Position numbers: made by a program. A stretch of DNA of 64,000 nt from Escherichia coli (GTDB taxonomy: Bacteria > Pseudomonadota > Gammaproteobacteria > Enterobacterales > Enterobacteriaceae): the NCBI RefSeq assembly GCF_045037415.1, contig NZ_CP173438.1, one strand, 5' to 3'. Below, in pieces: positions 1,210-4,200 of this stretch; positions within the stretch are counted from its first letter, which is position 1; each line of letters opens with the position of its first letter.

Positions 1210-4200
1210 TCAGCCCGCTTGCCTGCTCCAGCCGCGCGCAAATGTCTTTAAAGTTAAACGTATGCGGCCCCATCAATACCGGAATAGCGTGTGCGGCCGC
1301 TTCCAGCGGATTATGCCCACCACGTTCAACCAGTGAACCGCCAACAAAGGCGAGATCGGCAATGCCGTACAGTAACATCAACTCGCCCATCGTATCGCCA
1401 ACCACAACCTGCGTGCTGGTGGAGGGGACTTCCCCTGAAGATCGTGTGATATAGCTTAGTCCAGCCTGGCGGACAAGGTTAATCGCATCCGGGAAGCGTT
1501 CTGGATGACGGGGTACCAGGATGAGCAATAAATTCGGGAATTGCTGTAACAATGCCTGATGTGCGGCGATCACCACACTCTCTTCGCCTTCATGAGTGCT
1601 GGTGGCAATCCATACCGGGCGGTGTGGTGCCCACTGGCGGCGCAGCGTCACGGCTTTAGCAGCCAACTGCGGCGTTACAGAAATATCGAATTTCAGGCTA
1701 CCGGTAACGGTCACCTGATTATTTTTTGCGCCCAGCGCCACAAAACGTGCACCATCTTCTTCATTTTGGGCGGCAATCAGCGTAATACGACGCAGCAAGC
1801 GGCGGACGAATTTACCCAGTTTGGCATAACCTGCGGCCGAGCGGGCAGAGAGTCGCGCGTTAGCGATCACCAGCGGAATTTTACGTTTATGTAGCGCCGC
1901 AATCAGGTTAGGCCATAGTTCGGTTTCCATAATCAACACCAGTTTAGGGTCGACTTTATTCAGGAAACGGTTGAGTGCATCGGGCAGGTCATACGGCAGA
2001 TAAACGTGCTGAACATCCTTCCCGAAAGCCGATTGTACGCGCTCCGAACCGGTTGGAGTCATGGTTGTTACGGTAATCGGTAAATCAGGATAACGATGAC
2101 GCAGTGCGCGCACCAACGGGATCGCCGCCAGAGTTTCACCGACGGAGACGGAGTGCAGCATAATGCCGCCTGGTTTTAGCGGATGGCGGTAAAAACCGTA
2201 ACGTTCACCCCAGCGTTTTCGATAGGCCGGAGCCTTACGTCCGCGCACCCAGAGCCGTATCCAGATCAGTGGCTGAATAAGGTAGAGAAGGGCGGTGTAA
2301 AGCAATTCGAGCATAGTAAATAGCTGACTTATGGATGTGCTGGGGATTCTATGTATTTAGCTGTGGCTTTACCATTACTTTTCCCGTTTTTGACTTAAAT
2401 AGCAATTTACCCGCCAATTCTTGCTGAACATCTATACTTTTTTTGTATTTTTATGCGATTCATTGATTTCTGCAGTACGTGCAGGAAGGAATCGCAGAGC
2501 AACAGTAAAAAGAATATGGTTGCTAATGATTTTATTTGATTGATTTCTTTATTGAAAATCAACAATGTGCTTAAAAATCATTCGGGTCGGATTGCCGCGA
2601 AAGAAGTGATACACTAGCGCGTCAATATCAGTGCGGTATCAGTATTCAGGTAGCTGTTGAGCCTGGGGCGGTAGCGTGCTTTTTCTGCTTCACCTTAATC
2701 GGATAATCTCAACAAAAAGAGTTACTTGTGGATAAGCCATTTCGAAGAATTTTGCTCATTAAGATGCGTTTTCATGGGGATATGTTATTAACTACTCCCG
2801 TCATTAGTTCGCTGAAAAAAAATTACCCTGACGCAAAAATCGATGTGCTGCTTTATCAGGACACCATCCCGATCCTGTCTGAAAATCCAGAGATTAACGC
2901 GCTCTACGGCATAAAAAATAAAAAAGCAAAAGCCTCAGAAAAAATTGCCAACTTTTTTCATCTCATCAAGGTATTACGTGCCAATAAGTATGACCTTATC
3001 GTTAATCTTACCGATCAATGGATGGTTGCTATACTGGTTCGCTTATTAAATGCCCGTGTGAAAATTTCCCAGGATTATCATCATCGGCAGTCTGCTTTTT
3101 GGCGTAATAGTTTCACTCATTTGGTGCCGTTGCAGGGTGGAAATGTGGTGGAAAGTAACTTATCCGTGCTGACGCCATTGGGACTTGAATCGTTGGTGAA
3201 GCAGACAACCATGAGTTACCCGCCTGCAAACTGGAAACGTATGCGTCGCGAACTTGATCACGCTGGTGTTGGACAAAATTATGTGGTTATCCAACCTACG
3301 GCGCGGCAAATCTTCAAATGCTGGGACAACGCCAAGTTTTCCGCTGTGATTGATGCCTTACATGCTCGTGGTTATGAAGTCGTTCTGACGTCCGGCCCAG
3401 ATAAAGACGATCTGGCCTGCGTCAATGAAATTGCGCAGGGATGCCAGACGCCACCAGTAACGGCGCTGGCCGGAAAGGTGACCTTCCCGGAACTTGGTGC
3501 GTTAATCGATCATGCGCAGCTGTTTATTGGCGTTGATTCCGCACCGGCGCATATTGCCGCTGCAGTTAATACGCCGCTGATATCGCTGTTTGGTGCGACG
3601 GACCATATTTTCTGGCGTCCCTGGTCAAATAACATGATTCAATTCTGGGCGGGAGATTACCGGGAAATGCCAACGCGCGATCAGCGTGACCGAAATGAGA
3701 TGTATCTTTCGGTTATTCCGGCGGCAGATGTCATTGCAGCTGTCGATAAATTACTTCCCTCCTCCACGACAGGTACGTCGTTATGATCGTTGCTTTTTGT
3801 TTATATAAATATTTTCCCTTTGGCGGTTTGCAGCGCGATTTTATGCGTATTGCTCAGACAGTCGCCGCCCGAGGCCATCATGTTCGGGTTTATACCCAGT
3901 CGTGGGAAGGCGAATGCCCTGATGTATTTGAACTGATCAAAGTGCCGGTTAAATCGCATACCAATCACGGGCGCAATGCGGAATATTTTGCCTGGGTGCA
4001 AAAACATTTACGTGAACACCCCGTCGATAGAGTTGTTGGATTTAATAAAATGCCGGGGCTGGACGTTTATTATGCCGCTGATGTTTGTTATGCCGAGAAA
4101 GTAGCGCAGGAGAAAGGCTTTTTCTATCGCCTGACGTCACGTTATCGCCATTATGCTGCCTTTGAGCGGGCAACCTTCGAACAGGGCAAGCCGACACAGC

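Follow-up and report, generated by a model that had tools for sequence, protein, structure and literature searches.

The window analyzed here is a 64,000-nucleotide stretch of Escherichia coli DNA (NCBI RefSeq assembly GCF_045037415.1, contig NZ_CP173438.1), and all coordinates count from its first letter. Near one end, the divergent genes waaA and waaQ are separated by a 413-nt intergenic region that houses the promoter and leader of waaQ, the first gene of an operon for the lipopolysaccharide (LPS) core. A first-pass annotation had placed in this gap, on the coding strand, an exact copy of ops, the element that recruits the NusG paralogue RfaH. Direct reading of the sequence and a pattern search reproduced that position: GGCGGTAGCGTG occupies 2667-2678 of the + strand, the same strand as waaQ. 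From its 3′ end to the GTG start of waaQ we measured 49 nt, close to the earlier estimate of about 50 nt, and the element falls on the coding strand of the predicted untranslated leader, between the predicted promoter and waaQ (Table 1). We assign 2667-2678, with high confidence, as the canonical ops site of the E. coli waaQ (rfaQ) LPS-core operon, lying inside its JUMPstart leader. The waaQ ops/JUMPstart is already known, and its presence here is an ordinary, textbook finding.

The 12 nucleotides fit the published consensus GGCGGTAGnnTG, with the essential G4, G5, T6, A7, and G8 and the pause-inducing T11 and G12 all in place. The wider 39-bp JUMPstart context on which the first-pass annotation had staked its call is also present: 2640-2678 matches Rfam model RF01707 over its full length (model positions 1-38 of 38), scoring 55.2 bits where the gathering score is 35 bits, with E = 6e-10. 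This is the only RF01707 match in the window, and it sits just upstream of the LPS cluster waaQGPSBOJYZU. The 39-bp JUMPstart element is reportedly the one described by Hobbs and Reeves in 1994. Its 5-bp hairpin, drawn from the consensus structure line of the model, can form all five pairs in each of four distinct E. coli variants (20/20 cells). Pair 2 is A:U in the window, U:A in the rfb and wza leaders, and G:U in another waaQ allele; this covariation, measured over four sequences only, is not significant, with 82 of 500 shuffles reaching the same score.

Comparison with K-12 sets the leader apart from its surroundings. Alignments gave 100% identity to the K-12 waaQ leader over 2637-2684, and the island at 2571-2686 is nearly invariant, although the block around it is only 62-80% identical. 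Sliding identity places that block at ~2400-5500, covering the upstream intergenic part, waaQ, waaG, and waaP, whereas the flanks and most of the distal operon (waaS to waaU) are mostly 95-99% identical to K-12. Judging from these alignments, a diverged 2400-5500 segment between near-identical flanks is a recombination mosaic. Among complete E. coli genomes, a 45-nt query covering 2640-2684 was found in 5,422 of 5,426; among the 5,423 records that matched, 4,906 did so at ≥99% identity and the remaining 517 at 95-99%. The allele carried at 2300-2800 is the majority allele of E. coli, with identity of at least 99% in 4,430 of the 5,425 records that matched. A nearly invariant island inside a diverged block and a nearly universal 45-nt stretch mark the promoter/JUMPstart/ops core as being under strong purifying selection, whichever allele of the downstream genes accompanies it.

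The factor expected to read this element can be followed in the strain from which the annotation was taken, E. coli SK1144 (RefSeq NZ_AP018784.2), whose genome is 100% identical to the window (compared as the first 15 kb and as 14087-64000). In SK1144, rfaH is intact (162 aa), and its product retains every residue on the published list of ops contacts, namely K10, R16, H20, R23, Q24, T68, and N70-V75 (PMC5995543). What the present analysis shows is therefore the ops sequence with its position and orientation, the JUMPstart around it, the extreme degree to which it is conserved, and the presence of an intact rfaH in the source genome.

The published mechanism supplies the remainder. The ops element is an exemplar of the consensus pause and ranks with the most powerful E. 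coli pauses; RNA polymerase halts at U11, and recruitment of RfaH, unlike pausing, requires bases 3-8 (PMC5995543). In the non-template strand, ops folds into a hairpin with a C3:G8 pair and a G4-A7 loop, from which T6 flips into an RfaH pocket formed by H20, R23, Q24, and R73; G5 is also read specifically, and a C3G+G8C double swap partly restores ops function (PMC5995543). Chromatin immunoprecipitation (ChIP) with sequencing in strain CFT073 detected RfaH over the rfa (waaQ) operon, downstream of the one ops in its leader, with the signal lost in a delta-rfaH strain, and the same study cites prior findings of RfaH on the K-12 rfa operon (PMC9765446). None of the 34 intragenic ops sites loaded RfaH in that study, although 22 of them have the correct orientation (PMC9765446). 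AT-rich DNA is silenced by H-NS and Rho, and RfaH is reported to counter this silencing (PMC9765446, PMC5449661); rfaH mutants have a truncated LPS core (PMC6358824, PMC5449661). The proposal that ops within the JUMPstart recruits RfaH to suppress polarity gains support from the identity of the leader with that of K-12 over 2637-2684 and from the published RfaH ChIP on the rfa operon.

The pause, the hairpin, T6 recognition, RfaH occupancy of rfa, and anti-silencing are carried over to the window from experiments on identical or consensus sequences, and on that footing the following course of events may be proposed. RNA polymerase would initiate at the waaQ promoter, at a predicted start near 2621-2624, and pause at ops with U11 at 2677. 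The non-template strand exposed in the bubble of the paused polymerase would form the tiny C3:G8 hairpin, presenting G5 and flipping T6 out into the pocket of the RfaH N-terminal domain. Release of autoinhibition would allow RfaH to replace NusG on the polymerase clamp, while its C-terminal domain would refold to a beta-barrel and recruit ribosomal protein S10. The RfaH-modified polymerase would then be expected to resist pausing, Rho/NusG termination, and H-NS/StpA bridging up to waaU, across an AT-rich, weakly translated operon of 9.9 kb.

The extent of that operon agrees with the first-pass call of a unit of about 10 kb from waaQ to waaU. Ten + strand genes follow one another at spacings between -8 and +69 nt, and the only + strand terminator-like sites inside them were weak (5-pair stems at 9294 and 10037). 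Shine-Dalgarno sequences within the operon are mostly weak or absent, and the GC content over 5-14 kb is 30-40% versus ~53% in the flanks. Scans with the consensus and with the core 8-mer GGCGGTAG found no second copy of either within the operon, and this single ops matches the published rule of one ops per transcription unit (PMC9765446). At the distal end, a perfect 12-bp hairpin overlaps the waaU stop codon and lies in the 25-nt gap that separates waaU from the convergent waaL. We infer that the operon ends at waaU: this hairpin is the likely end of the waaQ-waaU transcription unit, and, from its sequence, it could be a bidirectional terminator for the waaU-side and waaL-side units.

Table 1. 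Coordinates of the waaQ leader elements, the waa operon, and other features discussed in the text
Feature	Coordinates	Strand	Basis and remarks
waaA (Kdo transferase)	1037-2314	-	Divergent; open reading frames and SK1144 annotation; bounds the 413-nt intergenic region
Conserved island	2571-2686	+	Presumed promoter, JUMPstart, ops, T-run; alignments and sliding identity
Extended -10 TGaTACACT (predicted)	2607-2615	+	Sequence read; invariant in four leader alleles
5′ untranslated leader (predicted)	2621-2727	+	Reported RirA RNA covers its first ~73 nt
39-nt JUMPstart CAGTATTCAGGTAGCTGTTGAGCCTGGGGCGGTAGCGTG	2640-2678	+	Rfam RF01707; ops is its 3′ end; GGTAGC direct repeat at 2650-2655 and 2670-2675
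JUMPstart 5-bp hairpin	2647-2665	+	Stem 2647-2651/2661-2665, 9-nt loop; RF01707 consensus structure line
ops element GGCGGTAGCGTG	2667-2678	+	Exact match; non-template strand for waaQ transcription
ops bases, published numbering	C3 = 2669, G5 = 2671, T6 = 2672, G8 = 2674; pause U11 = 2677, G12 = 2678		PMC5995543
Operon waaQGPSBOJYZU	2728-12610	+	9.9 kb, ten genes, K-12-type core; open reading frames match SK1144 RefSeq
waaQ	2728-3786	+	Passes NCBIfam equivalog cut-off
waaG	3783-4907	+	Sub-threshold NCBIfam match
waaP	4900-5697	+	Passes NCBIfam equivalog cut-off
waaS	5734-6669	+	Passes NCBIfam subfamily model
waaB	6713-7792	+	Passes NCBIfam equivalog cut-off
waaO	7792-8811	+	Passes NCBIfam equivalog cut-off
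waaJ	8851-9867	+	Sub-threshold NCBIfam match
waaY	9885-10583	+	Passes NCBIfam equivalog cut-off
waaZ	10653-11504	+	Passes NCBIfam equivalog cut-off
waaU	11537-12610	+	No NCBIfam match; RefSeq annotation
Perfect 12-bp hairpin TAAGAAGTGAGT / ACTCACTTCTTA	12601-12628	+	Only strong site in the terminator-like scan
lldP	30422-32098	-	Contains 30656-30667, antisense

The transcription start can be bracketed from two sides. The sequence TGaTACACT reads as an extended -10 element and predicts a start at about 2621-2624. RirA, a 73-nt RNA derived from this leader, beginning at the waaQ 5′ end and including ops, is described in published work as binding RfaH together with RNA polymerase (PMC6358824, PMC5736990, PMC8745692). 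Because RirA has that 5′ end and includes ops, the start is confined to 2606-2640, and it must be upstream of 2640. The value of ops as a landmark for the transcribed leader, as originally suggested, is supported to this extent, with the exact start a prediction. A generic sigma-70 scan returned a single + strand hit, TTGAAA/18-nt spacer/AATCAT (2552-2581; start ~2588), which we rejected because a 73-nt RirA beginning at ~2588 would end before ops, contradicting its published description.

The start codon of waaQ also admits two placements. The RefSeq rfaQ start of SK1144 maps to GTG 2728, preceded by a weak AAGAG at 2716-2720 as the sole Shine-Dalgarno-like sequence. UniProt and EcoCyc begin the K-12 protein at ATG 2764, 36 nt downstream of this GTG. 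The heptosyltransferase III model TIGR02201 aligns from WaaQ residue 7, and the peptide KPFRRIL(L/V)IK is kept relative to K-12 through synonymous changes; both favor the long N-terminus, and GTG 2728 is better supported than ATG 2764.

Two observations touch the immediate surroundings of this leader. In E. coli SW07163, the gap between waaA and waaQ contains an IS1 element (730-1427 of that locus) immediately upstream of the conserved promoter/JUMPstart island, which is intact. Directly after ops, 2679-2697 is a pyrimidine-rich, G-poor run, CTTTTTCTGCTTCACCTTA, in which the T-run is kept across alleles.

Could the motif be something other than an RfaH loading site? A search of both strands over all 64 kb, which the first-pass annotation had proposed as a check, found no exact copy of GGCGGTAGCGTG besides the one in the leader, where the base composition of the window predicts 0.007 copies. 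Less exact matches are more frequent: the consensus GGCGGTAGnnTG occurs twice (0.12 expected), the 12-mer with up to two mismatches nine times (5.2 expected), and the bare 8-mer GGCGGTAG five times (1.4 expected). That looser matches do arise at random, and that the second consensus match, GGCGGTAGCCTG at 30656-30667 of the + strand, falls in lldP on the wrong strand, are the points in favor of a chance 12-mer devoid of function. We consider this scarcely credible for 2667-2678, given the expectation for an exact copy, the full JUMPstart context, the location in the leader of an operon known to depend on RfaH, and retention in 5,422 of 5,426 genomes amid a diverged block; conservation and context already refute it. 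The lldP match itself, which the first-pass annotation did not list, fits the consensus, positions 9 and 10 being free; at a distance of 105 nt, the coding strand of lldP carries an inverted GGCGGTAG 8-mer without the TG (30544-30551, - strand). We tried 30656-30667 as a second RfaH site and rejected it: because it lies on the template strand inside lldP, it is not expected to load RfaH for lldP mRNA, and intragenic ops sites are inactive in ChIP (PMC9765446). The ops-like matches in lldP and the surplus 8-mers are probably coincidences of coding sequence. A different objection would grant the pause and dispense with the factor, GGCGGTAGCGTG then being a mere strong consensus pause, for example for ribosome loading at a weak start. 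The rank of ops among the strongest E. coli consensus pauses (PMC5995543) would suit such a role, as would the GTG start of waaQ and its weak AAGAG sequence. We judge it very improbable, since G4-G8 are unneeded for pausing but essential for RfaH (PMC5995543) and are invariant here, in rfb, and in wza. The RfaH ChIP signal that spans the rfa operon and disappears in delta-rfaH (PMC9765446) and the truncated LPS core of rfaH mutants (PMC6358824, PMC5449661) point the same way, so the published data already contradict an RfaH-independent pause.

A more serious contender holds that the leader acts additionally, or instead, as an RNA: RirA would titrate RfaH and impose negative feedback on LPS synthesis. 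RirA has been reported for K-12 in reviews from the discovering laboratory (PMC6358824, PMC5736990, PMC8745692), and the window matches K-12 exactly at 2637-2684 and almost exactly from 2571; Rfam also lists the JUMPstart among RNA motifs, and its hairpin is paired in all four E. coli variants compared. The evidence for RirA, however, comes from one laboratory and from overexpression, and what RfaH is known to read is the non-template DNA in single-stranded form rather than RNA (PMC5995543). The predicted fold of the leader RNA over 2621-2735 is no more stable than its shuffles (z = +0.66), and the covariation support for the hairpin is insignificant; a scan of 2200-2900 found no terminator-like hairpin followed by a T-run that would yield a 73-nt product. 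We make no claim for a large structured waaQ leader, the minimum free energy of 2621-2735 being that of shuffled sequence. An RNA role seems possible but doubtful, and it would complement the DNA-based ops mechanism, not replace it. Less likely again is that the upstream two-thirds of the JUMPstart (2640-2666), with its copy of the GGTAGC repeat and the 5-bp hairpin, functions separately from ops, or that the antisense ops in lldP loads RfaH. The upstream part might set the timing of the pause or of RfaH loading, acting as a hairpin of non-template DNA or of nascent RNA, or it could instead define the RirA decoy RNA; RfaH loading onto an antisense transcript at the lldP ops is a weaker alternative.

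Two results limit the support for 2667-2678 as the canonical waaQ ops site. The generic sigma-70 scan missed the proposed -10 element TGaTACACT at 2607-2615. When DNA folds were computed for the 12-mer and for three JUMPstart copies, the 12-mer gave a weak hairpin (-0.9 kcal/mol) whose predicted register, G4:C9 and C3:G10, differs from the C3:G8 pair of the crystal structure, although a 12-mer is too short for the DNA fold predictor to settle the register. The data hold nothing that contradicts the canonical waaQ ops reading.

For the annotation of this strain, the site would pin down the transcribed leader and mark a 9.9-kb LPS-core operon as RfaH-dependent, and it would explain full-length expression of a gene block that is AT-rich, weakly translated, and prone to H-NS and Rho. 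It brings no biological novelty: nearly all complete E. coli genomes carry these 45 nt, and published structures and ChIP maps already account for the mechanism. A modest addition is the 100%-conserved regulatory island within a strongly diverged waaQ-waaP allele, which illustrates selection on the leader apart from the genes.

Elsewhere in the window, Rfam identified naRNA4, a nucleoid-associated noncoding RNA derived from repetitive extragenic palindromes (REP), at 40854-40931 of the - strand (77.5 bits), which is the mtlA-mtlD intergenic region in the SK1144 annotation. A match to the small RNA ES036 (CssrF) at 53460-53502 of the - strand scored 40.7 bits against a threshold of 37.6 and adjoins a glycoside hydrolase family 127 pseudogene that RefSeq records as frameshifted (~53581-55550). 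A 1447-aa open reading frame for a YadA-like trimeric autotransporter adhesin (32495-36838, - strand) contains adjacent ~147-bp repeats, 90% identical, at 35112-35413, as detected by off-diagonal BLAST.

Among known systems, the K-12 waaQ (rfaQ) ops/JUMPstart is reportedly the prototype RfaH target, in work attributed to Bailey, Hughes and Koronakis (1997). It shares with the window the same locus, the 39-nt JUMPstart, the divergent waaA, and the ten-gene content of a K-12-type operon, with an ops-to-start spacing of 47 nt versus 49 nt. The two differ in their flanks only, where 2400-2570 and waaQ-waaG-waaP belong to another allele at 62-80% identity. RF01707 matches K-12 at three places, the waaQ leader (55.2 bits), rfb (60.0 bits), and wza (57.3 bits), and the comparison with other JUMPstart leaders that the first-pass annotation had suggested bears out its call: all three carry GGCGGTAGCGTG inside the model. 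The rfb (galF-rfbB intergenic) and wza (colanic acid) elements have the same 39-nt architecture and the same place in the leader of a long polysaccharide operon. Relative to the window JUMPstart, rfb differs at 6 and wza at 9 of the 39 positions, all upstream of the last 14 nt, GGGGCGGTAGCGTG, and the distance from ops to the first gene is 75 nt at rfbB and ~178 nt at wza, compared with 49 nt here. A 39-nt query of the rfb type was found in 5,425 of the 5,426 complete E. coli genomes, at a median of three places per genome.

More distant relatives keep less of this architecture. Ops sites without the full JUMPstart occur in hly, kps, and F-like tra operons. The hly and kps sites follow the same GGCGGTAGnnTG logic, in which a non-template leader signal loads a NusG paralogue (PMC9765446), and IncX plasmids have an ops-like PrfaH site with that logic (PMC11880322). 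Sites of the hly, kps, tra, and PrfaH type vary at positions 9-10, and some stand without the upstream JUMPstart half; the crystallized ops9, GCGGTAGTC, has TC at these two positions (PMC5995543). Beyond the RfaH family, sigma-70 -10-like pause elements, lambda Q sites, and the targets of Bacteroides UpxY and of LoaP rely on the same base-flipping reading of paused non-template DNA (PMC5995543). These signals involve other proteins and other sequences, and their likeness to the waaQ ops is an analogy of mechanism, not membership in one family.

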